In this document: positions 16,761-44,781 of the stretch, piece after piece
Numbering within the stretch: position 1 is the stretch's first letter
Layout of the letters: every line of letters starts with the position of its first letter
Origin: a virus
Length of the DNA stretch: 64,000 nucleotides
IMG/VR virus record: IMGVR_UViG_3300045988_081376
Reading direction: 5' to 3' (one strand)
Notes under the pieces: generated by a model
Told to the model about the DNA's origin: nothing
Seen by the model: only the letters and a program-made list of their open reading frames with translations
Database searches by the model: none
Position numbers and translations under genes: made by a program

Positions 16761-17840
16761 TCAATACCTCACTCCGATAAAATCCAGCACTCGGCCATAG
16801 CCGAGGCCCTTTTCATTTGGCTTCCACATCCCGTCAGCAGGATCGTAAGCCCCGCCGCCGATGCAGAACTCATAGTGCTTCGGATGCGTGTGCTTCATGC
16901 GCTCGAATCGGTTCTCGCCCTTTTCGAGATGTGCGCCAAATGCGCAGAACATACAGCCTGTGCGCTGGCAACCCGTGCAATGCAGCTTGCAGTCGATCAG
17001 CGTTTTGGTGTAGTCGTTCTCGCCGTCACTGGCCACAATGTCACCGTAGACACTTGCGATAGGGATTTGCCGGTCTACGATAAACCGTAATACGTCCTGC
17101 TCCGTCCAGAAACTCATGGGCTTAGATAAGGGACGCCTTCCTTCAAAGGCGTTGCAGCCGGTTTCGCGCCATTTTTGCATACGCAGAAGACTTTCCTCCG
17201 CCATTGTTGCCGTCGTGGGCTTGACATCCGCTCGGTGCTCATAGCTCTTTGACGGGGACTTTTTCATAATTCCACAGCACTTGTCTGATATGAGAAATGG
17301 AGCCGAAAGCAAATACTCCCACTTTTCACAGTTGTACATACTCTTTTCCCCATCGGCGCGTAAGACTTCCCCTCGCAATAGCTTCATACTTCGGCTATCT
17401 GGTGAACGCCGCGCGGTTTCTATCCTGTGCGCTACGTCTTTACCGATGATGCTGTACCCGTACTTCGTCACCACCTGCCGAATGTTCATCTTCGGGCGTA
17501 GACGGTGAAGGTTTACGGTCACGCGGGGAAACTCCCTCCGCAGCCAGTCGGCGTACTCATTGACGAACTTCTGTATCTCCGGGTACTCCAGCCCTGTGTT
17601 CACAAACACCAAGTGCAGCTCCCACGGCGGTGCCCTGAAACTCGACAGGTAACGCGCCGCCAAGTATGCCAGCACCGCGCTATCCTTTCCACCGGAAAAA
17701 CTGACATAGCACCTCCCGCCCCATGCGGTGTACCACTGGTCGAGCTTTTCGTAAGTCAGGATTTCTTTGTCTTCCAGATCGAGTGCTAAGAGCTGTTTCG
17801 CCGCCTCTTTCGGAATCGGCTGATTGCTATACTCTTCCAT
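16761..17840 (-). CDS. PAPS-reductase/DndC-like PP-loop ATPase with C-terminal Cys cluster
   Basis: 359 aa. CYVSFSGGKDSAVLAYL (PP-loop SGGKDS). C-terminal CKLHCTGCQRTGCMFCAFG looks like an Fe-S cluster ligand pattern. Confidence 0.8.
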   Translation of the reverse strand: MEEYSNQPIPKEAAKQLLALDLEDKEILTYEKLDQWYTAWGGRCYVSFSGGKDSAVLAYLAARYLSSFRAPPWELHLVFVNTGLEYPEIQKFVNEYADWLRREFPRVTVNLHRLRPKMNIRQVVTKYGYSIIGKDVAHRIETARRSPDSRSMKLLRGEVLRADGEKSMYNCEKWEYLLSAPFLISDKCCGIMKKSPSKSYEHRADVKPTTATMAEESLLRMQKWRETGCNAFEGRRPLSKPMSFWTEQDVLRFIVDRQIPIASVYGDIVASDGENDYTKTLIDCKLHCTGCQRTGCMFCAFGAHLEKGENRFERMKHTHPKHYEFCIGGGAYDPADGMWKPNEKGLGYGRVLDFIGVRY

Positions 17841-18081
17841 CGCGCACCTCGCATTCTCCGAACAACTCCCGGAACGTCTGCCCGGTCAGGTCTTCCAGCG
17901 CAAGCAGCCCTCTGATAGTCGCATCAATATCGCCCTTGATAAAGCGCGAAATGTTGCTCTGGTGGATGCCGGTCGCCGCGCCGAGCGTCGTCTGGTTGTA
18001 GTCAGTCTTTTCAAGCGCCGCCTTGAGCGCCGGATACACGCAGCGCTCCCACGGGGTTTTGCTCATAACAAATCGGCTCAT
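17827..18081 (-). CDS. HTH (XRE-like) small protein
   Basis: MSRFVMSKTPWERCVYPALKAALEKTDYNQTTLGAATGIHQSNISRFIKGD. ATG at 18081 overlaps the upstream stop (ATGA). Confidence 0.55.
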   Translation of the reverse strand: MSRFVMSKTPWERCVYPALKAALEKTDYNQTTLGAATGIHQSNISRFIKGDIDATIRGLLALEDLTGQTFRELFGECEVRDGRV

Positions 18082-18518: not shown

Positions 18519-18766
18519 CTCACACCCTCCGTTTTCACAAAATGCAAAACCATGTCATACCCCTGATCGGTTTCGATGATGTCCCACGAGTGTCCTTCAC
18601 TAAGTTCATGACCGTCTCGGATCTCGATCCGCCGATCTTTGCTGTCGCCATCGGCATCGCTGTTTTTATATTTCAAGTACGGATAATGCGTCTGCGAGCA
18701 GCCGACCAGCAGCACCGTAACCGTCGCCGCAGCGATTAGGATTCGTTTCATTTCCCTCTCCTTCAT
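18515..18766 (-). CDS. Putative lipoprotein
   Basis: MKRILIAAATVTVLLVGCSQ: signal peptide with lipobox L-V-G-C. Overlaps the 3' end of the upstream methylase ORF. Confidence 0.6.
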   Translation of the reverse strand: MKEREMKRILIAAATVTVLLVGCSQTHYPYLKYKNSDADGDSKDRRIEIRDGHELSEGHSWDIIETDQGYDMVLHFVKTEGVR

Positions 18767-19352
18767 TCCGCGGCGGGCGCGGCAGCGGCTGGTAGATCGT
18801 TTGTGTGTTTCTCATCCACGGTGTCAGCCAGACGCACCACATCACATCCATCAGGGGACTGCCGCTATCGCCGTCCCCTCGTTCCTTAAAGAAGAAATCG
18901 GGGCGCCACGTCAGGGGAAGTATGTAGCTCGGCGGGATCTCTTCAAAAAGTGCCATTCTCTTCGCCGCGTGCCAATACTGTGACTTGAGCAGCATCGCAA
19001 AGGGCTTTTGAATTTCCGCTGCACGGCGAATAAAATCCTCCGCCAGCGAAAACGGCGGGTTCGTGATGATCCAATCAAAGCTTGTGAGAATTCTTTTGAA
19101 AATACCGGGGCTTAAAAAGTCGAACCCTTCGGATATATCCGTTCCGAATGAGCTGCCATATCCGCACGCCCTGATCACGTCCAGCATATCCCCCTCGCCC
19201 GCCGCAGGCTCCCAAATGGTCGTATTTTTCGGCAGGTTCAGAAATTGAAGAAGGGCGACCGTCGCCTCCGGCGGCGTCGGGTAAAAGTCGGCCTGTCTGC
19301 GCCCTCTCGCGCTGTTGCCGCCAGCTATCCTGCTCGCATTCAAGCTATCCAT
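18666..19352 (-). CDS. N6-adenine DNA methyltransferase (NPPF motif)
   Basis: From MDSLNASRIAGG. ADFYPTPPEATVALL, WEPAAGEGDM (SAM-binding), WIITNPPFSLA (motif IV). gggagg RBS before 19352. Confidence 0.75.
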   Translation of the reverse strand: MDSLNASRIAGGNSARGRRQADFYPTPPEATVALLQFLNLPKNTTIWEPAAGEGDMLDVIRACGYGSSFGTDISEGFDFLSPGIFKRILTSFDWIITNPPFSLAEDFIRRAAEIQKPFAMLLKSQYWHAAKRMALFEEIPPSYILPLTWRPDFFFKERGDGDSGSPLMDVMWCVWLTPWMRNTQTIYQPLPRPPRNEGEGNETNPNRCGDGYGAAGRLLADALSVLEI

Positions 19353-19354
19353 AT

Positions 19355-20038
19355 TCAACCTCCCGCAAACAAACTGATCTGCGCTGTGTGTTCCGCAAAG
19401 CGCTTTTCCTGCGCCTGAAAATAGTGAGGGTCGATCTCGCACCCAACAAAATCAAAGCCAAGATCATAGGCGGCTATGCGGCTGCTGCCGCTGCCCAAGT
19501 GGGTGTCCAGTATCTTGTCTCCCGGTTTGGCGTACTTCTGCAAAATCCATGTGTACAAAGCCACTGGCTTTTGCGTTGGATGAATTCGCACTTCGTTCAG
19601 CGCCTTGTTTCCCTGCTGTGTTGTGCCGTCCCTGATGCTTTTCCCTTGAAACATCCCGTTCCACATATAGCGGAATATCCGAACGCTGTCATGAACGTTT
19701 GTCGCCGCGATCTCGCAGTCCGAAAAGGAGCTACTGTCGTTGCACTTATCCCAAACGATACGCCCCGGTGGAAACACGACGTCGAAGTAATTGCAGCCCC
19801 AGACAATGTACTTTTTCGCCACGCGCGCCAGTTCGAAAAAATAGTCAATTCCCGGAACATCCCACTTCGGTGATATGGGATAGTCTCGATGTACGCCAAT
19901 GGGGCTGATCTTACAGCCATAATAGCCACGCCGCTCCGGACCGCTGAAATATGGAGGGTCTACCACAGCCAGATCGAACGCCTTGTCCGGTGTCGCCCGC
20001 ATATACTCCATGCAGTCCGTGTTATATGCTACGTTCAA
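19355..20038 (-). CDS. N4/N6 DNA methyltransferase (beta class, DPPY motif)
   Basis: 227 aa. FDLAVVDPPYF (motif IV) near the N-terminus and ILDTHLGSGSSRIAAYDLGFDFVGCEID (motif I) near the C-terminus. Confidence 0.85.
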   Translation of the reverse strand: MNVAYNTDCMEYMRATPDKAFDLAVVDPPYFSGPERRGYYGCKISPIGVHRDYPISPKWDVPGIDYFFELARVAKKYIVWGCNYFDVVFPPGRIVWDKCNDSSSFSDCEIAATNVHDSVRIFRYMWNGMFQGKSIRDGTTQQGNKALNEVRIHPTQKPVALYTWILQKYAKPGDKILDTHLGSGSSRIAAYDLGFDFVGCEIDPHYFQAQEKRFAEHTAQISLFAGG

Positions 20039-20722: not shown

Positions 20723-20758
20723 ATTGTATAAGCTCCCCCCAAACGAATTTTTGCCGCC
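20723..20758 (-). promoter_or_regulatory. Box A: 20-nt conserved element, 10-nt spacer, TACAAT (candidate phage-specific promoter)
   Basis: Minus strand GGCGGCAAAAATTCGTTTGG (20758-20739), N10, TACAAT (20728-20723), about 20 nt upstream of the 20702 start. The 20-mer is identical to 26407-26426 on the plus strand. Confidence 0.6.
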
Positions 20759-21156
20759 TCTGCACCGCCTGCGTACCCGCGCTTTATCTCCCGTCAGCAT
20801 CCTTGTTTCGTCCTTACTGCCTCCCCTGCACGTCGCCGGACACTACGGTGCGAAGCGCCCGCGCAAAATTTTAAAATAGAGACATCACGCGCGAAGCGTT
20901 TTTATAAATTTTTTTCGGAAGGCCTTTTTGTTTTTTGGATTTTTCGCCACGCTTTCAAAACCACCCCCCCTATGTCTTGTTGACCTCACCAATACGTTAA
21001 GGCGGTGAACGTGTGTGGGGAAGGGAGAGTTATGGGGCTTGTGCGCCTGAGAAAGTCGCTTCGAATCGTAAACCACCCCCGCCCAGCCGGAGACGATCGC
21101 ACCCGCCCAGCAGACCCGGACGAGGCCGCGCAGGCCCGCGGAAAGACGCCAAAAGC

Positions 21157-21208
21157 CGGTAACTGTTTCACTTATTGATAATAAGCACAACAGTTACCGC
21201 CATTTTTT
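21157..21208 (+). terminator. Long nested hairpin followed by a T6 run (plus-strand terminator-like)
   Basis: Outer stem CGGTAACTGTT/AACAGTTACCG (21157-21199). Inner stem CTTATT/AATAAG. Then CCATTTTTT. Confidence 0.5.
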
Positions 21209-21365
21209 GTTGCATTTGCAACAGTCGTTCGTCAACCTGCACAACGAGTGAGCGGCACGGCTCTCGCCCGACCTTCCGAGATAGTAAACACTTGTTGACT
21301 ATCAATCACAGTTAACCTTTCTGCCGTTCCGCTCTCTTCGCTCAATGTGTTGCATTTGCAACAGT
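21208..21365. repeat. Two copies of the perfect 16-bp palindrome TGTTGCATTTGCAACA, 140 bp apart
   Basis: Copies at 21208-21223 and 21348-21363. Identity extends to 18 nt (..GT). Half-sites are TGTTGCA/TGCAACA. Confidence 0.8.
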
Positions 21366-21926
21366 TCGCAGCCCTCACCCATGAACAAGCCGGGTTTGGC
21401 GACTCTTCCACCCCTCCCCGTTTTTTTGCTCTTTTTGCCTGTATTTGAAAACAAAGAATAATATAGTGTACTGAAAACGGGCGCGGGATAAACGCGCGCG
21501 CGTACAGCCTCAGGGCTTTTCCCAGTGCTCGCATACGGCAGGGCATGAGAAAAACCCGCTGGGGCGTTCCCTGCGGGCTGTGGCGGTGGTTTATGGCGTT
21601 GTGGTTGGGTTAGATGATGTATAGCGTGCCGTTAACGTCAAGGCTTACGCCCTCTTGCTGCATGTCCTGCTTGATCTAGCGGCAAAGCTCGACGACTTCG
21701 GCGGCGTGTTCCTGCACGGCTTCCGGCGTGGCGGCGCTGTAAACGATCGTTACACCCTCGCCGACATGGCAGTTCAAACAATTATACCACTCATATTTTG
21801 TACACTTCGCGCAAATCGAGAATAAAATAATCGTCTGACAGTCGCCGACTGGTTGCCGATTGGTCGGCCGGATACATGACGGATACAACCTGTATACATG
21901 ATGGATACAAGGCAAAGCGCCGGGGA

Positions 21927-22637
21927 TTACTCCCCAGCGCTTTTATTTTTTGGCTTGTTCCAGCCCTCCCGCTCGAATATTTCCGCCCAGGTTGTCGGCG
22001 TTCCGTCTTCGTGCCACACATACGCGGGCTTTGGCTCTTCCGTTTTCTTTTTCGGGGCGGGGTATGGGGCTTCCTTTGGCTTTTCGATCTGCAAGGGCTT
22101 GTGCATGTTCCCGCTTAATCTGATAATTTTTTCCGTTTCATCTGCTCCGATCTTGACCCATTTATCAACAAAATCGTTGATGCTGACGGACTTTTTCCCG
22201 GCCGCGACCGCCGCCGCTTCGTAAATCTCACTTTTCACGCTGCAAGCGGTTCGCCCGTTTTCGGCTTCCGGCACGTTCTGAGCGCTTTTTTCTTCCTCCG
22301 AGGTTAGACATACTACCCCACCCGCTAAAATCGCTCCTGCGGCTTCCTGTGTCGATTCTGTGGCATTTTCTGCGGCGGGTGTCGGTTGCCATTTCTCCCG
22401 CTTTGTGTCGTAGCCGCGCGCCTCTGCGATTTGCGGCAATGAGTTATCGAGCGTCAGCGCCAACCCGCTGCGCTGCTCCACCGCTTCCAGAATATAGCGG
22501 TTTACGCTTTGACCGTCAGCGGCGGCAGCTTCTTTAATTCTTTCTCGGCTCCCTTTGGGGACAACAACAGAAATTCTTTCATAATTCTCTTTGTTGTACT
22601 TATTCGGGTCCCATGAACTATTTTCTTTTTTTGGCAC
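21927..22637 (-). CDS. Ribbon-helix-helix (Arc/CopG-like) regulator with long C-terminal extension
   Basis: 236 aa. YERISVVVPKGSRERIKEAAAADGQSVNRYILEAVEQR is an RHH signature. GTG start after gaaaggagg. Divergent from the operator array. Confidence 0.75.
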   Translation of the reverse strand: MPKKENSSWDPNKYNKENYERISVVVPKGSRERIKEAAAADGQSVNRYILEAVEQRSGLALTLDNSLPQIAEARGYDTKREKWQPTPAAENATESTQEAAGAILAGGVVCLTSEEEKSAQNVPEAENGRTACSVKSEIYEAAAVAAGKKSVSINDFVDKWVKIGADETEKIIRLSGNMHKPLQIEKPKEAPYPAPKKKTEEPKPAYVWHEDGTPTTWAEIFEREGWNKPKNKSAGE

Positions 22638-22661
22638 AGTGTCGCCTCCTTTCTTCCGAAT

Positions 22662-22690
22662 ATACTATATGTAAACTGCTCAGTTTGCAA
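22662..22690 (-). promoter_or_regulatory. Promoter of the RHH gene
   Basis: Minus strand: TTGCAA (22690-22685), 17-nt spacer, TAGTAT (22667-22662). Confidence 0.55.
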
Positions 22691-22712
22691 GCTTTTCCTA
22701 GAAAAAACATTT

Positions 22713-22898
22713 AATTGCACAATTATCTTGAATCGCAATTGTGCAATTTGCTAAATCGGTTGTAATTGCGCAATTTATATTGACAATTGTGCAATTACGG
22801 TTTATTATAGGCACATAAAGCAATTGAGCAATTTACCACAAGGGATAACGCTTACATTACAGGAGGAATGAAAATGACAGTAAAGGAATTGTGCAATT
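22713..22898. repeat. Operator array: six copies of the 12-bp palindromic motif AATTGNNCAATT
   Basis: Copies at 22713-22724, 22737-22748, 22764-22775, 22785-22796, 22822-22833 and 22887-22898. The last lies inside the first plus-strand ORF. Confidence 0.8.
22780..22808 (+). promoter_or_regulatory. Promoter of the plus-strand accessory operon
   Basis: TTGACA (22780-22785), 17-nt spacer, TATTAT (22803-22808). Operator copy 22785-22796 overlaps the last base of the -35 hexamer and fills the start of the spacer. Confidence 0.6.
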
Positions 22899-23092
22899 TG
22901 ATTAAGTTCTACCCCGACGACGATAGAAAGATGGGAATCTACATTTCAGCCGACGGAGCAACAAAGGACTTCGACCCGGCCGTTGCAATTGAGTTAGCCG
23001 CCTATGGCGATTTCGTCATCTCCGAAATTGGCATAAGTTCGAGAGGCGCAGAAATCGAGATCAAGCGCGAATTTGTAAAGGCCATCACCTGA
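22874..23092 (+). CDS. Small hypothetical protein, paralog of 33606-33821
   Basis: MTVKELCNLIKFYPDDDRKMGIYISADGATKDFDPAVAIELAAYGDFVISEIGISSRGAEIEIKREFVKAIT. Shares AAYGDFV and (D/E)FVKA with the paralog. aggagg RBS. Confidence 0.7.
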   Translation: MTVKELCNLIKFYPDDDRKMGIYISADGATKDFDPAVAIELAAYGDFVISEIGISSRGAEIEIKREFVKAIT

Positions 23093-23166
23093 TCGGCGCT
23101 GCTTCTGGGCGGTTGAGCATATCAGCCGCACCCCACGAAATCAAAACCAAAAAAGGAGAAATAACC

Positions 23167-23316
23167 ATGCTTCCCATCAAGAACATTCTTGACAGCCTGC
23201 GCGATGATGTTTTATCCGGCAAGATCACGCTTCACGAGGCAGCCGAGGAACTGCACGAAAGCGGATGGATGAACTTCATCGACGAGGACGCGGCCCGCCG
23301 CCTTCTCAAACTGTGA
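23167..23316 (+). CDS. Small hypothetical protein
   Basis: MLPIKNILDSLRDDVLSGKITLHEAAEELHESGWMNFIDEDAARRLLKL. aaggag RBS. Confidence 0.6.
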   Translation: MLPIKNILDSLRDDVLSGKITLHEAAEELHESGWMNFIDEDAARRLLKL

Positions 23317-23353
23317 CCAGAAATTTAAAACCATAAAACGGAGGATCTCAACC

Positions 23354-24637
23354 ATGAAAACCACTTCCATTAAATTCTTTTACAACGGTATCAAGCTCAA
23401 CGGCGAGAACAAGCTTTTAAAGTGCTTCTACAGCATCGATAACAGCACCGCCGAGTCCGGCCCCTGCGTCACCATCTACGCCCGCGATTATTCCGATCTT
23501 CCGCGCGACGTGTTCCCCGTCGAGAATGACACAGATATTTATACCGACTATTTCGACAGCGACCGCGCCACCCTCACGCCCGCGCACCCGCTTTATAAGT
23601 ATGCCCGCGCCGCCGCCATCAAGGCCGATCTGCGCGACTCTGTGCCCTACCTCGAGAAGCTGGAGCGCACGCTGAACAGCGGCAAGCTTGCCCCCTGGCA
23701 GAACGCCGATACCCTGAAAATTGACGTGGAAAGCCGCCGCGCGAAGGTCGAGCAGTACCGCGCCGAGCTGGAACAGCTCCCGAAGACTCACCCTACCGCC
23801 GCCGACCTCGCCGAGATCGACGCCATGAAGACCGCCGCCGAGAACGCCCGCCGCGCCCGTGAACAGGCTGAACAGCTCGAAGCGCGTGAAAAGATGCTGC
23901 GCCAGCGCGCCGAGGGTCGCGCCTATATCGAAGGGATCGCCCAGCAGCACCCGATCACCGAGGGCGCGCCCTATGTGGAAATTCCCTTTTCTGAAAATCC
24001 CGCCTTTTATGCCTTCAACGACCAGACCGACAAAACCGGCGAACCCCTGCGCCTTTCCGTCGCCGCTGCGGAAATCGTCCTGAAGCATTTTGATGAACAG
24101 GCCGCCGCCGAGAATCGCGGCTATGACAAGACCGATTTTGTCATTCATTACATCGACGACAACGGCGAGCCGTCCACCTATTCCGGCCGCTACGATCTCG
24201 GCGACAACGACGGCATGATCGCCCATATCCGCAGTTTTGGCGAGTTCCTGCGCGACAAGGGGAATCTTGGAAATGGCAATCCCAGCGACGAAGATAAAGA
24301 AGCCGGAGCCGCTATTGTCGAGTTTTCCGACATGCTCGAAGGATACACCGCCGGCGGGCACGTCGTCTCCGTTGATTTCGCCCCGTGGCTGGATGACTAC
24401 GCCCGCCGCAAGGCAGAACAGCAAGCCGCCGAAGAACAGGCCGCCCGCGCGAGCTTCGAAGAGACGCTCGCAATGCTCGAAATGCTCACAGACGAGCAGC
24501 TGGAAGCCGCCATTTTCAGTATTGACCCGAACGACACCGAGAACGCCGACATCGCCCGCTTTTTCTTCCAGCAGCTCGCCAAGCGCGACAAGTCCCACGC
24601 CGTCGAGGTGCTGCGCCGCTGGAACTCTCAAAACTGA
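23354..24637 (+). CDS. Large hypothetical protein (acidic, central coiled coil)
   Basis: 427-aa ORF with RBS acggagg. Natural composition, unlike the 511-aa antisense ORF. No family recognised with confidence. Confidence 0.7.
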   Translation: MKTTSIKFFYNGIKLNGENKLLKCFYSIDNSTAESGPCVTIYARDYSDLPRDVFPVENDTDIYTDYFDSDRATLTPAHPLYKYARAAAIKADLRDSVPYLEKLERTLNSGKLAPWQNADTLKIDVESRRAKVEQYRAELEQLPKTHPTAADLAEIDAMKTAAENARRAREQAEQLEAREKMLRQRAEGRAYIEGIAQQHPITEGAPYVEIPFSENPAFYAFNDQTDKTGEPLRLSVAAAEIVLKHFDEQAAAENRGYDKTDFVIHYIDDNGEPSTYSGRYDLGDNDGMIAHIRSFGEFLRDKGNLGNGNPSDEDKEAGAAIVEFSDMLEGYTAGGHVVSVDFAPWLDDYARRKAEQQAAEEQAARASFEETLAMLEMLTDEQLEAAIFSIDPNDTENADIARFFFQQLAKRDKSHAVEVLRRWNSQN

Positions 24638-24700
24638 ACAGCGGCACACGATCAACTGAACAGCCCAGCCCCGGAGGTCACGAGGGCAGAAAGGACACCT

Positions 24701-24967
24701 ATGAAAGCTAAACTGAACGATGCGCAGGCCCGCGCATATATCGCGGGCGAATCGAGCGAACCCGTGCAGGAGATTGAGCGTAAACACATTCTCCGCCTTG
24801 TGTCCGCTTTGCAGGAGGCTGCAGAGCGTCCCGGCATGAACCTCGCAAACCTGTGCAAAACCGCCGACCGCTATGTGGAAAATCATCAGAACACAGAAAA
24901 CCGGCAGGAGCTTTCCTTGCTGATTGCGGCCCGTGACGCCATCAAATCCCAATCAAATGAACAATGA
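24701..24967 (+). CDS. Hypothetical protein
   Basis: 88-aa ORF in operon orientation. Confidence 0.55.
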   Translation: MKAKLNDAQARAYIAGESSEPVQEIERKHILRLVSALQEAAERPGMNLANLCKTADRYVENHQNTENRQELSLLIAARDAIKSQSNEQ

Positions 24968-25025
24968 TTCGATGAAATCGAATCTGGTCCAGGAACCGCA
25001 AGAGTGCGAAAGGAGATCACCCCCC

Positions 25026-25241
25026 ATGTTTATGGTTTACTTCAAAGGCCCCAGAGACAAACAGCATAAGCCCATGAGCCTGAACACCGGCGAGCTGTTT
25101 AATCGCCTCGTTTATGCGCCCGTCTATGATGACGACCTCCTCCCCGCCGTCAAGTCGTGGATCGACCTGAACAAGAAGCGCGCCCCCGATTGCTCCATTC
25201 AGTGCCGCATCCCCGGCACATCGAAAGTCATTTACGCCTGA
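25026..25241 (+). CDS. Hypothetical protein
   Basis: MFMVYFKGPRDKQHKPMSLNTGELFNRLVYAPVYDDDLLPAVKSWIDLNKKRAPDCSIQCRIPGTSKVIYA. aaggag RBS. Confidence 0.55.
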   Translation: MFMVYFKGPRDKQHKPMSLNTGELFNRLVYAPVYDDDLLPAVKSWIDLNKKRAPDCSIQCRIPGTSKVIYA

Positions 25242-25279
25242 ACATCCCCCACAAAACCGCCCGGAAAGGAGCCCCCGTC

Positions 25280-25372
25280 ATGACCACTTTTTTCATCTTT
25301 GTTGGCGTCTCGACCACCGTCTACCACCTCATGCGCGTTCTTATCTATATCGACACCGGCGAAAAATGGTAA
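25280..25372 (+). CDS. Tiny hydrophobic peptide (30 aa)
   Basis: MTTFFIFVGVSTTVYHLMRVLIYIDTGEKW. aaaggag RBS 8 nt upstream. Confidence 0.4.
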   Translation: MTTFFIFVGVSTTVYHLMRVLIYIDTGEKW

Positions 25373-25445
25373 GGCGGCAAAAACTCCCCTTGGAGTATCG
25401 GCATATAATGAAAGCAGAATCTGAACAGAAAAGGAGAATATCGCC

Positions 25446-26159
25446 ATGCTGACCACTGAGCAGACCCTCGAGCGCGTTTTGCGCATCGCCCGCAGCCTCC
25501 CGGAAACGGAACGGCAGTATTTTGATTTTGCCCAGAAGCACCCGGTCGATTGCGGTAAGAATCACTCGGCAATCGGCGTCCAGTTGTCCGCCCTCGTCAT
25601 CGACCTGCGCGAAACCATCGCCACCGAGGAAGAATGCAAGCGCGGACGTGCCGCCCCGTATGCCGCCGCCAAGCGCATCTGCAAGCGCACCGTCGACCGC
25701 AACAGCCACCGCCCCAGCACGCAGGGCGCGTGGATCGACTCCGAAGGCAAGCAATGCCTCTGCGACGGCATGACCGGCGTTCGCCTGAACAGCCCCTTCA
25801 AATTGGCCGTAGCCCCTGAGCCTGAATGTGGCGAGCGATTCGACCTCGACGCCGTGATCCGTCCCATTCGTCTGAACAGCATCGCCCTGAAATCTCTGCC
25901 CGCCGAGGTTCGCGCCAAAATCAAATCCGACCGCGCCGAATACAAAGCGAGCGGTCGGTCTAAATACGAGTCGTTCGTTTCGACGTATGACTTCGGCGTG
26001 GGTCTTCCGTTGGTCAACGCGGAATATCTCCTTGATCTGCTCGAGCTTTTTCCTGATTGCGAAATCTACGCGCACGATAATCCGCTCTACCCCATTTACT
26101 TCAAAAGCGTCTCCAGTGAAGCCGTCCTTTGCCCCATCCGCAAAAGCGAAAAGGGCTGA
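25446..26159 (+). CDS. Hypothetical protein whose C-terminus resembles sliding-clamp (DnaN) domain III
   Basis: 237 aa. LVNAEYLLDLLELFPDCEIYAHDNPLYPIYFKSVSSEAVLCPIRKS is reminiscent of the DnaN C-terminal pattern N..YL.D.L......P......A.lMPmR. aaggag RBS. Confidence 0.45.
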   Translation: MLTTEQTLERVLRIARSLPETERQYFDFAQKHPVDCGKNHSAIGVQLSALVIDLRETIATEEECKRGRAAPYAAAKRICKRTVDRNSHRPSTQGAWIDSEGKQCLCDGMTGVRLNSPFKLAVAPEPECGERFDLDAVIRPIRLNSIALKSLPAEVRAKIKSDRAEYKASGRSKYESFVSTYDFGVGLPLVNAEYLLDLLELFPDCEIYAHDNPLYPIYFKSVSSEAVLCPIRKSEKG

Positions 26160-26177
26160 ACGGAACAGGAGTGCGTC

Positions 26178-26402
26178 ATGACCTACGACGTTTTTGATGC
26201 GGGCTATTCCCCGCCAGATCCGCGAAACCCCGGCCGCTATCTCGGCAGCGTCGAGATTCCCACCGCCCGTGAGGGAGTCCCGAACCGCGCCGCGCTCCGC
26301 TTTCTCGACCACCTCGACCGGACGCGCCGCAATGCCTACAGTGCCCGTTTCAATCTCGTGTCCCCCGCCGAGCGAAAAATCTACAAAAACTTTTTCGTGT
26401 GA
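26178..26402 (+). CDS. Hypothetical protein
   Basis: 74-aa ORF with aggag RBS. Last gene before box B. Confidence 0.55.
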   Translation: MTYDVFDAGYSPPDPRNPGRYLGSVEIPTAREGVPNRAALRFLDHLDRTRRNAYSARFNLVSPAERKIYKNFFV

Positions 26403-26406
26403 ACAG

Positions 26407-26442
26407 GGCGGCAAAAATTCGTTTGGAGCCACTGCGTATAAT
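26407..26442 (+). promoter_or_regulatory. Box B: 20-nt conserved element, 10-nt spacer, TATAAT (candidate phage-specific promoter)
   Basis: GGCGGCAAAAATTCGTTTGG (26407-26426), N10, TATAAT (26437-26442). Inverted copy of box A, with the same spacing to the -10. Confidence 0.6.
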
Positions 26443-26651
26443 AATACTTGAGGGCGGGAGATCAAACCCTCCCATGAGCGCGCGGCAGACATACGGGTGC
26501 GCCGGGTCTGCGCCGTGCAATAGTCCCGACGTCGCGCCGCCCTCGCTCCATGGCCTCCTTTCTGTTATATAAGCCCTTCCGTAAGAAAGGCTGCGCTGGT
26601 GTTGCGAGTGAATCCGTCTCCGGCGTCCCGCGGGCAGTTCGCGCAGGAACG

Positions 26652-26683
26652 GTGGTTGAGGTGCGGGAACGCACCTCAACCAC
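26652..26683 (+). promoter_or_regulatory. 14-bp perfect hairpin with GGAA loop, 25 nt upstream of the HNH start
   Basis: GTGGTTGAGGTGCG-GGAA-CGCACCTCAACCAC. No U-tract follows. Confidence 0.5.
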
Positions 26684-26708
26684 GAGCTGAGAATGAAAGT
26701 GGTTTTGT

Positions 26709-27248
26709 ATGGAAGAAATCTGGAAGGAAATCGAAGGGTTCCGTGGGAAATACTTCGTGAGCAATTGGGGGCGTGTCAAAAATAAAGCCGGTCGAATTAT
26801 CAGCCAGCACGCTCGAAAAAGCAGATATAACTATGTTGAAGTAGAACTGTGGCTGGACACCGTCAGGCATTTGTGCAAAGTGCATCGTTTAGTGGCAAAA
26901 GCATTCGTTGAAAATCCGTGTCATTATCCAGAGGTCAATCACAAAGACGAAAACCATCTCAACAACCGAGCCGATAATTTAGAATGGTGCGACCATCTAT
27001 ATAATTGCAGATACGGGACGAGGGGAGCTCGCATAGGTGCAAAGCTTTCTCGATCGGTCATCCAGTTGAAAAACGGGGAAATCGTCGCCGTATGGGACAG
27101 TGTTAGAGCCGCTGAAAAAGCAGGGTACACCCGCGCAAGCATCGTAAGATGCTGTAACGGAGAATATTCGCACCATAAGGGATACCAATGGGAATTCTTT
27201 AATGCGGGCATAGCTCAGCTAAGAAGAGCGCACGAGCCATATTCGTGA
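26709..27248 (+). CDS. HNH homing endonuclease (NUMOD4 + HNH_3 + C-terminal DNA-binding module)
   Basis: 179 aa. EIWKEIEGFRGKYFVSNWGRVKN (NUMOD4), VHRLVAKAFVENP..EVNHKDENHLNNRADNLEW (HNH_3), VWDSVRAAEKAGYTRASIVRCCNG. The last ~45 nt overlap the tRNA-like gene. Confidence 0.85.
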   Translation: MEEIWKEIEGFRGKYFVSNWGRVKNKAGRIISQHARKSRYNYVEVELWLDTVRHLCKVHRLVAKAFVENPCHYPEVNHKDENHLNNRADNLEWCDHLYNCRYGTRGARIGAKLSRSVIQLKNGEIVAVWDSVRAAEKAGYTRASIVRCCNGEYSHHKGYQWEFFNAGIAQLRRAHEPYS

Positions 27249-27277
27249 GGTCGTGGGGGCGGAACCCACTGCCCGCA
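27204..27277 (+). tRNA. Aberrant tRNA-like gene (anticodon position CAU; C33 and non-canonical T-loop); possibly a pseudo-tRNA
   Basis: Hand fold: GCGGGCA TA GCTC-AGCTAAGAA-GAGC G CACGA-GCCATAT-TCGTG AGGTC GTGGG-GGCGGAA-CCCAC TGCCCGC A. All four stems pair, but the anticodon loop lacks U33 and the T-loop lacks TTC. Confidence 0.5.
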
Positions 27278-27575
27278 AAATCAAATGAAAGGGGCGAGTT
27301 ATCGAATGTATTTTTACGAGCCTTCTTGCGCTGCGATCAGGCTCATCGCGCAAATACTCGCCCTTGCGGTCTACTTGATCTCCCACCCGATCATGCCCGC
27401 AGAATCGTATCAGCGCCCCGCGCAGGCGCACAAGTGCGGTGATGGAAGACTCTATACCACGGGGTTTATCTAGTGCCGATTTGTGGGTGGGAATTGTGAA
27501 ATGCAACTAATAGGGCGTTCTATCGGAGCGAGGATTGAGCGAAAGACTCCCCTCGCCGCCCTCGTTCCGATATAT

Positions 27576-27651
27576 GCGGCGGTAGCTCAGCAGGCAGAGC
27601 ATCAGACTTCCAATCTGAGGGTCGCGGGTTCGAGACCCGTCCGCCGCTCCA
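27576..27651 (+). tRNA. tRNA-Gly (UCC)
   Basis: Hand fold: GCGGCGG TA GCTC-AGCAGGCA-GAGC A TCAGA-CTTCCAA-TCTGA GGGTC GCGGG-TTCGAGA-CCCGT CCGCCGC T CCA. 76 nt with encoded CCA. Confidence 0.85.
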
Positions 27652-27771
27652 CGCGCCACTTTGGTGGGCGCTTCATGGTTTTTCTCCTCGCTATAAAAAG
27701 GCTCCAGCGGGCGGCAAATCGCTGGATCGGATGAAAAGCCCCGACGGCGGGAGGAAATGCCCGCCATATAT

Positions 27772-27875
27772 GGAGACGTGACAGAACGGCAATGTAAGAT
27801 CCGCTCCGGGCAGTTAGGTGGGACATCTCCCGGTAGCGAAACCACCGTGCGGGGTTCGAGTCCCCGCCGTCTCCA
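27772..27875 (+). tRNA. Oversized (104-nt) tRNA-like gene, identity unassigned
   Basis: Acceptor GGAGACG/CGTCTCC. Class-II-like D-arm TG ACA-GAACGGCAA-TGT. Canonical T-arm CGGGG-TTCGAGT-CCCCG. About 55 nt lie between the D and T arms and I could not fold them into a standard anticodon plus variable arm. Confidence 0.45.
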
Positions 27876-27966
27876 CAAAAGCGCCCCTTGCGGAGTTGGT
27901 GGCGCTATACAAGTAAAGGAAACCGACGCCAGATCGCCCGCCATGGCGTAAACAAGGCGGGGATTT

Positions 27967-28045
27967 GCATCCGTAGCTCAGAGGGGCAGAGCGTCGAGGA
28001 ATTTCACGCCTCTAAATGTCGCCGGTTCGAGTCCGGCCGGATGCA
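27967..28045 (+). tRNA. Aberrant tRNA-like gene (extended anticodon arm; possible UUC/Glu reading)
   Basis: GCATCCG TA GCTC-AGAGGGGCA-GAGC ... GCCGG-TTCGAGT-CCGGC CGGATGC A. The central 22 nt TCGAGGAATTTCACGCCTCTAA give a GAGG/CCTC stem with either a 9-nt loop or a 7-nt loop AUUUCAC closed by an A.G pair. Confidence 0.5.
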
Positions 28046-28256
28046 CTAATTCGACGTGGACGCCGCGAGTGGATAGCGTTTTAGCGGAGCAGCCGCCTGG
28101 CCGATGCGAAGTCCTGAAGTAAGGCCCTCAAGTGCCGATGTTGTAATTGCGCCTATGGTTCTCTGGCTAAAGCGGCACACGGATAGAACCCGACAGCCGG
28201 GAAAGACCGGCACAGGACCCCGCGCACCTCTCAACGATGTGTCCCAGCGGGGACAT

Positions 28257-28331
28257 ACAGGCGTAGCCAAATGGTAAGGCATGGGACTTTGACTCCCAGA
28301 TATGCAGGTTCGACCCCTGCCGCTTGCACCA
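28257..28331 (+). tRNA. tRNA-Gln (UUG)
   Basis: ACAGGCG TA GCC-AAATGGTAA-GGC A TGGGA-CTTTGAC-TCCCA GATAT GCAGG-TTCGACC-CCTGC CGCTTGC A CCA. Positions 1-72 are an A.C mismatch. The Gln-type D-arm resembles bacterial tRNA-Gln. Confidence 0.8.
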
Positions 28332-28362
28332 TCCAAATTTTCACGAAAGGAGGCCCATCCCA

Positions 28363-28638
28363 ATGACCAAACCCGAGTTGATCGACAAGCTTGCCGAGGA
28401 AGCCGGCACCACCAAGGCGCAGGCTGAGCGCGATCTCACCGCCCTGTATTCCATCATCACTGCCGCCCTGGTTGGCGGCGATAGCGTCGCCATCCCTGGT
28501 ATCGGCAAGTTCGAAGTCAAGGAGCGCGCCGAGCGCAAGGGGCGCAACCCCTCGACCGGCGAAAGCGTCATCATCCCCGCGAGCAAGGCCGTCACCTTCA
28601 AGGCGGCCAAAACGCTCAAGGACGCCGTTCGCGGCTGA
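28363..28638 (+). CDS. hup: HU/IHF-family DNA-binding protein
   Basis: MTKPELIDKLAEEAGTTKAQAERDLTALYSIITAALVGGDSVAIPGIGKFEVKERAERKGRNPSTGESVIIPASKAVTFKAAKTLKDAVRG. aaaggagg RBS. The ORF-track start 28324 lies inside the tRNA. Confidence 0.9.
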   Translation: MTKPELIDKLAEEAGTTKAQAERDLTALYSIITAALVGGDSVAIPGIGKFEVKERAERKGRNPSTGESVIIPASKAVTFKAAKTLKDAVRG

Positions 28639-28653
28639 TCTCTAAACGGAAAC

Positions 28654-28690
28654 GCCCCGAGCGCGCACAAAGCCGCTCGGGGCTTGCCCT
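28654..28690 (+). terminator. Hairpin downstream of the HU gene (weak terminator)
   Basis: 10-bp stem GCCCCGAGCG/CGCTCGGGGC (28654-28683), followed by TTGCCCTT. Confidence 0.45.
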
Positions 28691-28800
28691 TAAAATCGAA
28701 ATTTTTAGTATATCAGAAAATCCAATTTTGGATTTTCTAATACGCTAAGACATAAGGAAAACGAGGCAAAGACTTCACCCCAACAGAAGGAGGAACCCCC

Positions 28801-29433
28801 ATGCCATCTGCCATCAACTTAACCGGCCAGCGGTTCGGACATCTTCGAGTAATCAGACCCATGAAAACACGTTCATATGGAAGTTTAAAATGGCTTTGCG
28901 TATGCGACTGTGGAAAGGAAACCATTGTCGCCGGCGGGCATCTGCGGTCAGGGCATACAAAGTCCTGCGGGTGTCAAAGAAATGCAATAAATCCTATGAA
29001 GACACACGGCGAATCGAAAACGCGCTTGTATAACGTTTGGCTTCTCATGCGGAGAAGATGCTCCAACCCAAAAGCCAAAGAATATGCTCGATACGGCGGT
29101 AGAGGTATCGCTGTTTGCGAAGAATGGCAGAACAGTTTCGAAGCGTTCCGCGACTGGGCGCTTGCAAACGGGTATAATAAAAATGCCGCCTATGGTGAAT
29201 GCACCCTCGACCGCATTGATGTGAACGGGAACTACTGTCCAGAGAATTGCCGATGGGCCAATGAATTGGTTCAGGCAAACAATCGGCGTTCAAATCGCGT
29301 ATTTGAAATTAACGGGCAAGCAAAAACGTTAGCAGAATGGTGTCGGATGACCGGCGCTTGCGATTCGACAGTTCGCCGCAGAATTGCCCGTGGGGTTCGG
29401 GTAGAAAATCTATTCAAGAAAGGGCGGGTTTAA
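28801..29433 (+). CDS. Degenerate HNH-like, Zn-ribbon DNA-binding protein, paralog 3
   Basis: 210 aa. [72 protein letters not shown]. gaaggagg RBS. Lower GC than paralogs 1 and 2. Confidence 0.6.
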
Positions 29434-29434
29434 A

Positions 29435-30549: not shown

Positions 30550-30840
30550 ATGAAAATTCTTGACCCCGGCGCCGTGCTGCGCTATAAGGCCCTCAAAGAA
30601 TCCGCCAATCATCTCGCGGTCGCCCCCTTTATCAAGATCGTTTCCCTCGACCCGTGCGAGGAACGCGAGACCGCCGGCATCGGCCTTGAGTTCCCCAACA
30701 ACTGCGCAATGATGAACCCCGGCGTTCGCAACGCCGTTTCGTTCCTTTTCGCCCAATGCGACACCGTGCAGATGAACCGCACCGACGCAGGTATTTCCCT
30801 CGTCTTCACCATTTTCAATGTCTGGAAGGAGGAACCGTAA
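30550..30840 (+). CDS. Hypothetical protein
   Basis: MKILDPGAVLRYKALKESANHLAVAPFIKIVSLDPCEERE... aaggag RBS. Confidence 0.6.
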   Translation: MKILDPGAVLRYKALKESANHLAVAPFIKIVSLDPCEERETAGIGLEFPNNCAMMNPGVRNAVSFLFAQCDTVQMNRTDAGISLVFTIFNVWKEEP

Positions 30841-31341: not shown

Positions 31342-31442
31342 AATTGAGAAGACCATTTCCCCGACTCGGGAAAATGGTCTTCTTGACTTTATCTGCCGAA
31401 GCATCCTATAATTGCCCTATCATCTACAGGAGGGAAAACAAT

Positions 31443-32024: not shown

Positions 32025-32029
32025 TAATC

Positions 32030-32058
32030 AAAAAGCCGCCCGTTTTGGGCGGCTTTTT
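32030..32058. terminator. Bidirectional intrinsic terminator
   Basis: AAAAA-GCCGCCC-GTTTT-GGGCGGC-TTTTT. Confidence 0.85.
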
Positions 32059-32359: not shown

Positions 32360-32396
32360 CCTTTCATTTTTTGCATTTTAATTTTGATATTTTCGC

Positions 32397-44764: not shown

Positions 44765-44781
44765 TCATCCACCGCCTATCG

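Follow-up and report, generated by a model that had tools for sequence, protein, structure and literature searches.

Three sites in a 64,000-nucleotide stretch of viral DNA (IMG/VR record IMGVR_UViG_3300045988_081376; hereafter the window), named PA, P3 and PB, are on balance best read as a phage-specific family of promoters that lack a -35 element, drive the operons of a 23-kb accessory arm (~11.6-34.9 kb) and probably depend on an extra factor. The virus is a temperate, siphovirus-like gut phage of ~66 kb, probably with an Oscillospiraceae host, and its relatives carry up to five such promoters against three in the window. A first-pass annotation had suggested that the box marks a promoter class of its own, possibly of middle genes, recognized by an alternative sigma factor or activator or by one that the phage encodes. 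That proposal stands in part: a conserved footprint, 3-5 co-oriented sites per genome and the swap of the whole signature in a sister clade speak for it, but the unit is not the 20-nt box that it started from.

Two inverted copies of that box (GGCGGCAAAAATTCGTTTGG) are indeed present with 0 mismatches, and they are the only matches in the window at up to three mismatches. Dinucleotide shuffles predict 0.02 matches, with at least two matches in 0 of 100 shuffles, and the box is the sole 100%-complementary pair (I15) among the window's 25 longest inverted repeats listed. In PA (20723-20758, minus strand), the box at 20758-20739 is followed by the -10-like hexamer TACAAT at 20728-20723; in PB (26407-26442, plus strand), the box at 26407-26426 is followed by TATAAT at 26437-26442. 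The gap is exactly 10 nt in both copies, as first described, and similarity between them is confined to the box and the -10. Neither has a TTGACA-like -35, the hexamers at 16-18 nt spacing (read from the sequence) being AAATTC, AAAATT and AAAAAT. A relaxed core, GCAAAAA-N4-6-TTGG-N9-10-TANNNT, has exactly three matches in the window (PA, P3 and PB), with 0 expected. Together with the shuffles, this result excludes chance as the origin of the box and -10 pairs and of their conserved spacing.

What is the functional unit? The middle of the 20-mer (TTCGT) differs between sites, and the real unit is bipartite, GGCGGCAAAAA followed by TTGG. From the third window site, a degenerate copy at 25373-25409 (plus strand; GGCGGCAAAAActccccTTGG-N10-TATAAT), and ~50 distinct sites in related gut-phage contigs, most of which were gathered with a pattern requiring the conserved blocks so that only the homology-derived sets are unbiased, the element reads GGCGGC-AAAAA(A)-N4-6-TTGG-N9-10-TAYAAT. 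Each genome of the phage clade has three to five sites. All examined sites are intergenic, face the downstream gene and lie 30-35 nt ahead of a ribosome-binding site and ATG, except PB, which precedes a block of RNA genes; this position fits a promoter role, because such a block needs a promoter. At orthologous sites, picked by protein homology and not by motif, mean pairwise identity is 0.88-1.00 for the GGCGGCAAAAA block, 0.80-1.00 for the TTGG block and 0.90-1.00 for the -10 block, against 0.40-0.64 for the 20-nt flanks, the middle and the spacer. Conservation of the box in related phages is thus upheld as a footprint of three blocks (0.80-1.00 identical). The distance from GGCGGC to the -10 is 23-25 nt, and this flexibility of +/-1 is the behavior seen with promoter elements. 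The middle of 4/5 sites in contig L050 reads AATGCC, a concerted change; identical boxes within a genome could reflect gene conversion instead of selection by a factor. Across 185,579 species genomes, the pattern was found only in these phage contigs and as chance-level matches. Its relaxed form gave three matches in Oscillospirales chromosomes (L024, L033 and L042), outside recognizable phage context and possibly a host-type element. The cI/cro region of the window contains no box.

Transcription from PA is predicted to start near 20716, followed by GGAG (20699-20696) in the 5' untranslated region (UTR). Because the most likely start codon is the ATG at 20687, 8 nt downstream of the GGAG, and not the one at 20702, the -10 lies 35 nt from the first gene, and the ~20 nt first given for copy A has to be corrected. 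PA heads a minus-strand operon that encodes 120-aa and 97-aa proteins, an N6_N4 DNA methylase, a methylase-like protein and a PAPS-reductase-like protein. At the orthologous sites in L046, L047, L049 and L050, GGCGGCAAAAA and the -10 are kept and the flanks are divergent. Directly upstream of PA is a conserved non-coding region (20759-21600, minus strand; no called gene) with 72-74% identity in L046 and L047. It contains an intrinsic terminator (~21577-21548, minus strand), two TGTTGCAAATGCAACA palindromes (21208 and 21348), a palindrome with 26-nt arms (21151-21205), direct repeats rich in G and a tract rich in A/T. This region is found together with the box signature and is missing from the sister clade. 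PA and PB do point apart, as the description of two divergent operons had it, but they are not an adjacent divergent pair: between them lie this 0.85-kb region, a ribbon-helix-helix (RHH) gene, an operator-flanked promoter at 22780-22808 and a plus-strand operon with P3.

P3 (25373-25409, plus strand), absent from the first-pass annotation, consists of GGCGGCAAAAA-ctcccc-TTGG (25373-25393), a 10-nt spacer and TATAAT (25404-25409). Its predicted start is near 25416, with an ATG at 25446; it heads a 237-aa PolIII-beta-like gene and a 74-aa gene, and its 5' UTR is homologous to that of PA (gaaa.cagaa.c.gaacagaa.ggag). The predicted start of PB is near 26449, and its box is the 5' edge of a conserved block in L001 and L047. 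An untranslated leader (26443-26574, plus strand; ~125 nt), predicted to be transcribed from PB, is present in all relatives, where it lies ~90 nt before the first tRNA; it has no significant fold (z-score -1.25) and no Rfam match. The cargo of PB (27576-30520, plus strand) comprises tRNA-Gly, tRNA-Glu and tRNA-Gln (27576-28331), HU (28363-28638), a 210-aa protein and a class-V aminotransferase/cysteine-desulfurase-like protein (29435-30520, plus strand), and relatives show no other good promoter between the 74-aa gene and the tRNAs. The leader of the window is interrupted by an HNH/NUMOD4 homing-endonuclease gene (26709-27248, plus strand) that is absent in relatives and therefore falls outside the ancestral PB unit. 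Of the block that copy B was said to precede, the leader, tRNAs, HU and desulfurase thus belong to it, and the HNH gene is a later insertion. Relatives have a further site, P4, in which GGCGGCAAAAATCAAYTTGG-N10-TATAAT stands before an ANT/Bro-type gene (MNELTI...); at this locus in the window (32700-32766, plus strand), P4 has been replaced along with the low-GC module 31384-32766.

Canonical promoters are found in the same arm. One, of sigma-70 type (22780-22808, plus strand; TTGACA-17-TATTAT), precedes the first plus-strand operon of the arm and sits amid five exact AATTGYRCAATT palindromes (22713-22898) and one near-copy seen by eye near 22820; the second reads TTGACT-18-TATAAT. These predicted promoters show that, in this phage, the host enzyme also works from ordinary -35/-10 sites, and the box sites are therefore a distinct class. 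A sister clade (MT835520.1 and JGI Ga0563788_00006) shares the arm synteny and has, at equivalent places, four copies of another signature, TTCCCTTGACACGG-N4-YAnACT, one of them before the homologous leader. Its genomes encode an ECF-sigma-like protein, a candidate reader of the sister-clade signature, whose gene the box phage lacks. The replaced signature, together with this gene, suggests that the specificity of a trans-acting factor differs by clade.

Which protein might read the box? The three regulators named by the first-pass annotation are poor candidates. The RHH protein (21927-22637) has a homologue in only one of four relatives compared over ±10 kb, the 72-aa RHH protein of L050 (50% over 42 aa), besides a weak match in L039 and a homologue in L036 (tblastx); in L046, L047, L049 and L050, a different 66-70-aa protein, RHH-like by sequence reading and not by database match, takes its role. 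No relative examined has a homologue of the helix-turn-helix (HTH) protein at 17827-18081, and the one at 63752-63970 persists, with 51% identity, in the box-less sister clade. Searches of the conserved small arm proteins against Pfam, PHROGs and NCBIfam returned nothing and revealed no cognate factor, and a profile of the sister-clade sigma family had no match in the window or in four relatives. The proteins confined to genomes with the box (71 aa, 74 aa and a 96/71/98-aa trio) carry no DNA-binding signature. The 71-aa protein has a 68%-identical homologue in a phage without the box, and its AF2 model gave no structural match.

The box sites are best taken as clade-specific promoters that probably depend on an extra factor, analogous to the MotA-box middle promoters of T4, in which the MotA box lies 12+/-1 bp from a -10 that must be strong (PMC2988021; geometry also PMC6755090). 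The sites share with T4 a phage-specific box in the -35 region, set a short, fixed distance (12+/-1 bp in T4, 9-10 bp from TTGG here) from an excellent -10 of host type and present in many copies per genome ahead of non-structural genes. The MotA box, (a/t)3TGCTTtA, is however unrelated to GGCGGCAAAAA-N-TTGG, which is longer and bipartite, and the phage here is temperate with a Gram-positive anaerobe as host. No MotA or AsiA homologue was detected among the proteins scanned, and the sole two-domain candidate, the 237-aa protein, has a PolIII-beta-like and not a MotA-like fold. In lambda, the three dispersed promoters PRE, PI and PaQ depend on one phage activator, CII, whose repeat straddles a poor or absent -35. 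The box sites resemble them as few, dispersed temperate-phage promoters with a common element, but the CII site, a direct repeat TTGC-N6-TTGC, is not present here, and CII promoters serve the establishment of lysogeny, whereas the box sites stand before operons of accessory, DNA-modification and tRNA genes, with none close to the integrase or repressor. Phage-encoded sigma factors with their own promoter signatures, such as SPO1 gp28 and gp33/34, likewise yield a clade-specific signature repeated before several operons; here, in contrast, no sigma-like gene was detectable in the window or its four closest relatives, and the -10 matches the host consensus rather than forming a new hexamer. RinA, ArpU and LtrC/Alt are late-operon activators of Firmicutes phages required at promoters with a poor -35 (PMC3753634, PMC3152322). 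They work at one promoter only, ahead of terS, whereas three to five sites lie in the accessory arm here and none at the packaging operon; no member of these families was found among the scanned arm proteins or in the precomputed Pfam lists for the remaining genome.

It is unlikely that the host primary-sigma holoenzyme reads the -10 alone, with the A-tract and GC block as UP-like or structural elements and the box kept for strength. In favor of this reading, the -10 deviates from consensus by at most one base, profile and database scans identified no reader protein, the three relaxed Oscillospirales matches lie outside phage context, and a TTG 13-14 nt before the -10 in both clades' signatures may reflect a contact with the core enzyme common to the two. 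But such promoters, with neither a TGn extended -10 nor a -35, are normally weak, UP elements are A/T-rich, unlike the invariant GGCGGC near -40, the whole signature is swapped in the sister clade despite presumably similar hosts, and other parts of this phage use canonical promoters. Distinctly improbable is a role of the box as operator, at which a phage repressor bound to GGCGGCAAAAA..TTGG over the -35 region would silence the accessory operons, for example in the lysogen. The box overlaps a region that RNA polymerase must occupy, the window, L050 and L036 encode RHH-type proteins early in the arm (the separate RHH-like protein of L046, L047, L049 and L050 being assigned by sequence reading only), and the element shows weak dyad symmetry (CAA-N8-9-TTG, as judged from its sequences). 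It is nevertheless asymmetric, with a single orientation and fixed distance relative to the -10; a repressor site would not explain the firing of a -35-less promoter; the resident repressors already have clear nearby palindromes of other sequence (AATTGYRCAATT and TGTTGCAAATGCAACA); and the cI/cro region has no box.

That the boxes are recombination sites, at which a recombinase such as the second tyrosine recombinase (33872-34876) inverts or mobilizes the 5.7-kb segment, is hardly credible, and we reject them as its borders. The two copies form a perfect inverted repeat of 20 bp, Rci shufflons likewise use asymmetric repeats (of 19 bp), a second integrase-family gene lies in the arm and the boxes coincide with mosaic breakpoints. 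The extra copies (P3, and P4/P5 in relatives) are however in direct orientation with PB and would give deletions, and both -10 elements lie outside the repeats. Exchange within the box would not alter the two outward-facing promoters. The A interior flank ('gcaggcggtgcag') is always joined to the A-type exterior and the B interior to the B-type exterior: at every A/B junction recovered, whether from 12 additional metagenome contigs, from the four IMG/VR contigs or from the four relatives compared over ±10 kb, the arrangement is parental, whereas inversion would leave the junction 'GGTGCAGA+box+AGCCACTGCGTATAAT'. Inversion would also leave the conserved -10 spacing and homologous 5' UTRs unexplained, the 20-mer middle is not conserved between sites, and the second integrase is kept in the sister clade, which has no box.

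For the promoter family that we favor, the sequences themselves show copy number, orientation, conservation, the missing -35 and the signature swap in the sister clade; we infer activity, factor dependence and a cascade of the following form. Region 2 of the host primary sigma would bind the near-perfect -10 (TAYAAT), and a clade-specific trans-acting protein, either an activator whose site overlaps the -35 position or a sigma-remodeling factor, would bind the bipartite element that replaces the -35 (GGCGGC-AAAAA at about -43 to -32, TTGG at about -26 to -23) and supply the contact that normally comes from the -35. Plus-strand transcription of the arm would enter at the operator-controlled 22780 promoter, the probable entry point of the cascade, after which no plus-strand terminator occurs as far as 29564. 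Expression of the blocks further on would next be raised by the box promoters: by P3 for the beta-clamp-like and 74-aa genes, by PB for the leader, tRNAs, HU and desulfurase and, in relatives, by P4 for antirepressor-like genes. PA, behind its terminator, would start the opposite methylase/PAPS-reductase operon. Because mosaic breakpoints coincide with the short conserved box cassettes, these cassettes probably double as junctions for the exchange of modules.

What do the 20-nt boxes at the head of two divergent operons have in common? As the first-pass annotation had reported, the 20-mer GGCGGCAAAAATTCGTTTGG occurs with 0 mismatches at 20739-20758 on the minus strand (copy A) and at 26407-26426 on the plus strand (copy B), and a search of the window that allowed up to three mismatches returned these two sites only, with 0.02 expected from shuffled sequence. 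Of the 25 longest inverted repeats that a listing for the 64 kb gave, only this pair is perfectly complementary. Also as described, exactly 10 nt separate each box from a -10-like hexamer, TACAAT (20728-20723, minus strand) or TATAAT (26437-26442). The hexamers at the spacings of a -35 (16-18 nt) are AAATTC, AAAATT, and AAAAAT, none of them TTGACA-like (0-2/6). When copies A and B are aligned, similarity is limited to the box and the -10 hexamer. Scanning for partial copies revealed a third one at 25373-25409(+), GGCGGCAAAAA-ctcccc-TTGG followed after 10 nt by TATAAT, which immediately follows a stop codon, with the ATG of a gene for a 237-aa protein 36 nt further on. These sites define three putative box promoters, PA (20723-20758, minus), P3 (25373-25409, plus), and PB (26407-26442, plus), and a relaxed core, GCAAAAA-N4-6-TTGG-N9-10-TANNNT, matches exactly these three in the window, where 0 are expected. 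Their hexamers (TACAAT, TATAAT, and TATAAT) are close to the TATAAT of sigma-70/sigma-A promoters, and TAYAAT is the -10 in all relatives. No extended -10 is present, as there is no TG at -15/-14 (the hexamers are preceded by ctta, gcg, and gca). The 5'UTRs of PA and P3 are homologous to each other (gaaa.cagaa.c.gaacagaa.ggag); therefore, the repeated unit is a promoter-plus-leader cassette of ~75 nt, and within it the 20-mer is best preserved. A promoter scan of the window did not list the box sites, although it detected 11/12 matches at 22780 and 31383. Sigma-54 (-24/-12), MerR-type long-spacer, and TTGG-as-(-35) geometries were set aside because their spacings, judged by eye, are unsuitable.

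Gene calls and Pfam marks, taken from ENA ERZ27272129 k141_254780 (66.7 kb, same proteins) and from our own scans, place these promoters in a temperate, siphovirus-like phage, a near-identical contig of which is binned in the metagenome-assembled genome (MAG) HGM13073; the host is probably an Oscillospiraceae bacterium. A lysogeny module comprises an integrase (10097-11233) and HTH repressor-like genes. The early/replication operon starts at ~8.4 kb, runs leftwards over the circular junction, and goes on into genes for packaging, tail, and lysis (64 to 35 kb, minus); in its early lytic part, between an SLT-domain gene and a 74-aa gene, lies a gut-2 RNA motif (RF02990, Rfam) at 7144-7191 (minus) that scores 44.2 bits, above the gathering score. 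The 23-kb accessory arm (11.6-34.9 kb) is transcribed outwards from ~22.7 kb. Its minus-strand genes, which extend down to 11.6 kb, include methylases and PAPS-reductase-like proteins; its plus-strand genes, up to 34.9 kb, include LPD25 (for which a literature search returned only a 2017 polyvalent-protein paper), the 237-aa gene, three tRNAs, HU, and cysteine-desulfurase-like, ANT/Bro-type, and second integrase-family genes. Two PAPS-reductase/PP-loop-like genes, a class-V aminotransferase (cysteine-desulfurase-like) gene, and two DNA methylase-like genes (16761-17840, 11869-12288, 29435-30520, and 18666-20038) are divided between the PA and PB operons, and by analogy the set resembles sulfur-dependent DNA/tRNA modification systems (Dnd-like).

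Between the ribbon-helix-helix (RHH) gene (21927-22637, minus) and the plus-strand operon lies a canonical promoter, TTGACA-17-TATTAT (22780-22808), surrounded within 22700-22900 by five exact AATTGYRCAATT palindromes and, by eye, one near-copy near 22820. A second canonical promoter, TTGACT-18-TATAAT, lies at 31383; ordinary -35/-10 promoters are therefore used by the host enzyme in this phage. The 22700-22900 region forms a second immunity-like switch within the phage, and its AATTGYRCAATT operator is specific to the window, being absent from the relatives L036, L046, L047, L049, and L050. At the far end of the arm is a tyrosine recombinase gene additional to the integrase of the lysogeny module. 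The arm thus owns a recombinase, a repressor/operator region, and a promoter class, which invites the question whether it originated as a separate element.

How far is the promoter signature conserved? Scans of IMG/VR with exact and degenerate patterns retrieved four related contigs, and a metagenome collection yielded sites on 19 additional gut-phage contigs. A motif-independent set was obtained through homologues of the 237-aa protein, which led to ±10 kb of four progressively diverged relatives (L046, L047, L049, and L050); L039, a distant MAG contig, is also box-bearing. Every relative recovered has 2-5 box sites, and all sites examined in contigs of the phage clade face a downstream gene. 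Site A precedes a gene beginning MFTKEQQ and the methylase operon; site 3 precedes the 237-aa gene (one gene earlier in L039); site B precedes a conserved ~125-nt leader and then tRNAs, HU, and desulfurase; site 4, the promoter P4, precedes an ANT/Bro gene beginning MNELTI; and site 5 precedes another Bro gene. The window is without site 4, which was lost along with the replacement of a low-GC module (31384-32766). This module (45% GC) is window-specific and stands in place of the relatives' P4 region. The ENA contig, with otherwise identical proteins, stops inside it at window position 32510 and carries different genes past the lysis genes (884-aa and 248-aa ORFs); therefore, the locus is either variable or mis-joined between assemblies.

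From 51 distinct cores the consensus is GGCGGC-AAAAA(A)-N4-6-(Y)TTGG-N9-10-TAYAAT, with 23-25 nt from GGCGGC to the -10. In homology-derived orthologous sets, mean pairwise identity was 0.88-1.00 for the GGCGGCAAAAA block, 0.80-1.00 for TTGG, and 0.90-1.00 for the -10, against 0.40-0.64 for the 20-nt flanks, the middle, and the spacer, a contrast that reads as a clean footprint at the level of sequence. The TTCGT in the middle of the 20-mer is unconstrained, being CTCCCC, TCAAC, or AATGCC at other sites. AATGCC is common to four of the five sites of L050; sites therefore evolve in concert, through either conversion between cassettes or tracking of a common reader (the protein proposed to bind the box). 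Across 185,579 species genomes, the pattern was found only in these phage contigs and in chance-level matches. Megablast against 50,697 phage records gave just two short matches and no annotated relative, so the clade is without a characterised member. A phage-specific box that replaces the -35 is a promoter class already well known; this signature, phage clade, and reader appear to have no characterised counterpart.

How might such promoters work? The host primary-sigma holoenzyme would bind the consensus -10, and a factor on GGCGGCAAAAA/TTGG (~-43 to -23) would stand in for the missing -35 contact. Judged from their sequence, the box sites are very probably promoters; that they also depend on a dedicated factor is a closer call, which we see as leaning slightly in favor. 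Because no plus-strand intrinsic terminator is predicted in 22808-29564, we propose that P3 and PB are internal boosters of a long transcript from the operator-controlled 22780 promoter. PA lies behind a terminator at ~21577-21548(-), the stem of which shows a compensatory change in L046, and is therefore proposed to be an independent start. The geometry is as in T4 middle promoters, where a MotA box, (a/t)(a/t)(a/t)TGCTTtA, lies 12+/-1 bp upstream of the -10 (PMC2988021), is centered at -30, and requires an excellent -10 match (PMC2988021; PMC6755090). Unlike the T4 element, the box contains no TGCTT and has instead GGCGGCAAAAA-N4-6-TTGG, 9-10 bp from the -10. The box promoters are also similar to lambda CII-dependent promoters.

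The main rival to a dedicated factor is a factor-independent promoter, in which a strong -10 is combined with a structural upstream element. The consensus hexamers are as such a promoter would have them, and the lack of a TGn extension and the covariation of signature with gene content described below count against it; we consider this reading fairly unlikely. That the box is an operator seems improbable to us; it occupies the stretch in which a -35 is missing, at near-constant distance from the -10. The least credible reading, that the 20-mers are recombination sites bracketing an invertible 5.7-kb segment, had been offered as an alternative in the first-pass annotation, and we reject it, since there are copies in direct orientation and parental junctions only. 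The 20-mers do form a perfect 20-nt inverted repeat, 5,648 nt apart; P3 and P4 are in direct orientation relative to PB. The inner flank of A (gcaggcggtgcag) is found joined to exterior sequence of the A type alone, and the inner flank of B (..gtgtgaaca or variants) to that of the B type alone. Recombinant A/B box junctions numbered 0 among the window, the ±10 kb regions of L046, L047, L049, and L050, the four contigs from IMG/VR, and all A/B junctions seen in 12 further metagenome contigs; these are assemblies, which represent majority states only and in which rare inversion could go unseen. Exchange inside the box would not change the promoter target, because the -10 elements lie outside the repeats. 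There is no recombinase gene inside the 20.7-26.4 kb stretch or next to it; 7.4 kb away, the second integrase-family gene (33872-34876) is kept in all relatives and equally conserved in a box-less sister clade. Mosaic breakpoints do coincide with boxes: sequence upstream of B in the contig L001 is unrelated right up to the box, a DUF4942 gene is inserted just before box B in L047, and P4 was lost from the window at such a box junction. The cassettes are therefore probably also short homology junctions for module exchange.

What do the box promoters drive, and what surrounds them? In the PB leader, an HNH/NUMOD4 homing-endonuclease gene (26709-27248) is an insertion absent from relatives; ancestrally, PB would have been followed by a conserved leader (26443-26574) and, ~90 nt later, the first tRNA. 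PB is the sole promoter candidate for the RNA-gene block in relatives, and such a block needs a promoter. The ATG in the leader is unconserved. For the PB leader and the region preceding PA, a structured RNA was set aside for lack of any Rfam match to either region and of significant folding energy (fold z-score -1.25 for the PB leader); at E<=1, Rfam gave, besides the three tRNAs, just clearly spurious sub-threshold matches. Three further paralogous stretches, at 3005-3490, 5819-6133, and 28801-29433, share 78-89% nucleotide repeats (D2, D6, I1, and I2), which suggests, on sequence likeness, several mobile nuclease-like genes in one genome. Adjoining PA upstream is a gene-less conserved stretch of 0.85 kb (20759-21600; 72-74% identity in L046 and L047) whose appearance suggests an operator cluster or replication origin. 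It contains two TGTTGCAAATGCAACA palindromes (21208 and 21348), a palindrome with 26-nt arms (21151-21205), a pair of GGGGGTGGTTT direct repeats spaced by ~110 nt, and a tract rich in A/T; the palindromes occur in all box-bearing genomes and in none of the sister clade.

A second repeated element is the heptamer TGAACAG (often CTGAACAG), copies of which make up a dense array, specific to one strand, at 23673-26406(+). Ten of its 11 plus-strand copies in the 64 kb fall within these 2.7 kb, where shuffles give <=3 per such span, and the minus strand has 4 copies. The array spans the early plus-strand operon of the arm in every relative (L046, L047, L049, L050, L039, MT835520.1 at 40760-47665, and the contig L090), sister clade included. 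Positions within genes are unconserved, and all three reading frames are occupied; several copies overlap stop codons of consecutive genes (24635 and 26400; TGAACAt at 25239). One copy lies in the P3 5'UTR, another adjoins box B, and two (24635-24664) flank the place of a box promoter present in L039 and absent from the window. The array may be a polar signal (Chi-like, elongation/antitermination, or RNA-level) or a junction linker.

Which protein could read the box? The three regulators put forward in the first-pass annotation did not hold up: the RHH protein (21927-22637) is not conserved among box-bearing genomes, the HTH protein at 17827-18081 has no homologue in relatives, and the HTH protein at 63752-63970 is RstR-like and conserved in the box-less sister clade. 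A CI-type repressor was ruled out by the lack of box-like sequence in the cI/cro region. Searches of Pfam, PHROGs, and NCBIfam gave no function for the 72-, 49-, 88-, 71-, 237-, 74-, and 120-aa proteins, and no match to a MotA-like activator or an AsiA-like anti-sigma among the small arm proteins, although remote analogues may exist. The AF2 model of the 237-aa protein (25446-26159; pLDDT 73) has weak sliding-clamp matches in PDB (E 0.05-0.4) and, in BFVD, matches phage "DNA pol III beta C-terminal domain/processivity factor" proteins (E 2e-7 to 5e-4). As modelled, the protein is beta-clamp-like, and these matches ruled it out as a MotA-like two-domain activator. Its N-terminal part is a four-helix domain, and another domain resembles the C-terminal one of the bacterial beta sliding clamp; its small-clamp-like family is widespread in uncultured siphoviruses. 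Arm proteins found in all four box-bearing relatives and in none of the sister clade are a 71-aa protein (25026-25241), a 74-aa protein (26178-26402), and a 96/71/98-aa trio (30550-31341). No small arm protein is better conserved than the 71-aa protein (93% in the distant L039, where its neighbour has 50%); a 68% homologue occurs in L091, a box-less phage, and the structure model of the 71-aa protein found no match. This protein is a weak candidate for the reader, and the three regulators first proposed fare worse.

Does the sister clade use the same signature? One member, MT835520.1, a 58-kb phage from human faeces whose record is unannotated, is syntenic with the window (40-80% amino acid identity over structural, LPD25, beta-clamp-like, HU, desulfurase, and integrase genes). 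It contains no GGCGGCAAAAA box; in its arm, and nowhere else, TTCCCTTGACACGG-N4-YAnACT occurs exactly four times. One minus-strand copy precedes the methylase operon, and the three plus-strand copies precede the LPD25 gene, another gene, and a leader. This leader and the PB leader end alike in ttatataagcccttccgtaagaaa, so its TTCCCTTGACACGG site is the homologue of PB. The second sister-clade genome, JGI Ga0563788_00006, has the same pattern. In both signatures, a TTG stands 13-14 nt before the first -10 base, which brings it nearer than a canonical -35 by roughly a helical turn. Both sister-clade genomes carry in the early part of the arm an ECF-sigma-like protein (Pfam Sigma70_ECF 22.9 bits, cut-off 21.1, E 9e-5), whose family comprises >200 phage-borne clusters, one of them named "sigma24 family" by a source. 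No sigma-like gene was found by hmmsearch --max with the ECF-like profile against all six-frame ORFs of the window, L046, L047, L049, and L050 (best E 2.7). Precomputed lists for the window and relatives contain no Sigma70 Pfam families, and the ~2.7 kb of the genome beyond the window, covered by the contigs L015 and L017, contain no sigma. The ECF-like gene is thus present in 2/2 sister-clade and 0/5 box-bearing genomes; this correlation of signature type with gene content argues for clade-specific trans-acting readers. The reader in the window's clade would not be recognizable as a sigma factor. In the sister-clade arm (MT835520.1 40618-41040 and 39489-40271; L088) are genes for an AcrIC5 anti-CRISPR domain protein (Pfam E 4e-20) and the ECF-sigma-like protein, which supports the view of these arms as anti-defence or host-takeover modules.

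A broader scheme is speculative and, taken whole, rather unlikely: the box and TTCCCTTGACACGG-N4-YAnACT promoters would be interchangeable clade-specific signatures, each with its own phage-encoded factor, an ECF-like sigma in the sister clade and, in the window's clade, an orphan protein (71-aa, 74-aa, or 96/71/98-aa) without detectable similarity to any sigma or known activator, and the cassettes would double as module-exchange junctions. If true, it would reveal a new family of -35-replacing (sigma-appropriation-like) factors in gut Clostridia phages.

We know of nothing reported on the transcription programmes of phages of Oscillospiraceae or other uncultured gut Clostridia. For these, the signature is a compact handle, with three sites in the window, dozens of natural variants, and a natural swap in the sister clade. 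It could serve as bait for the reader protein, to predict operon structure in metagenomic phage genomes, and to ask about the timing of accessory/anti-defence arms (methylases, PAPS-reductase, desulfurase, tRNAs, and HU, with an anti-CRISPR-like gene in the sister clade). The most useful lead is the signature swap with the sigma-bearing sister clade. If the host polymerase is enough by itself, the box would simply mark a strong promoter variant; should the reader prove to be a new -35-replacing factor, the T4 sigma-appropriation paradigm would reach Gram-positive temperate phages as well.
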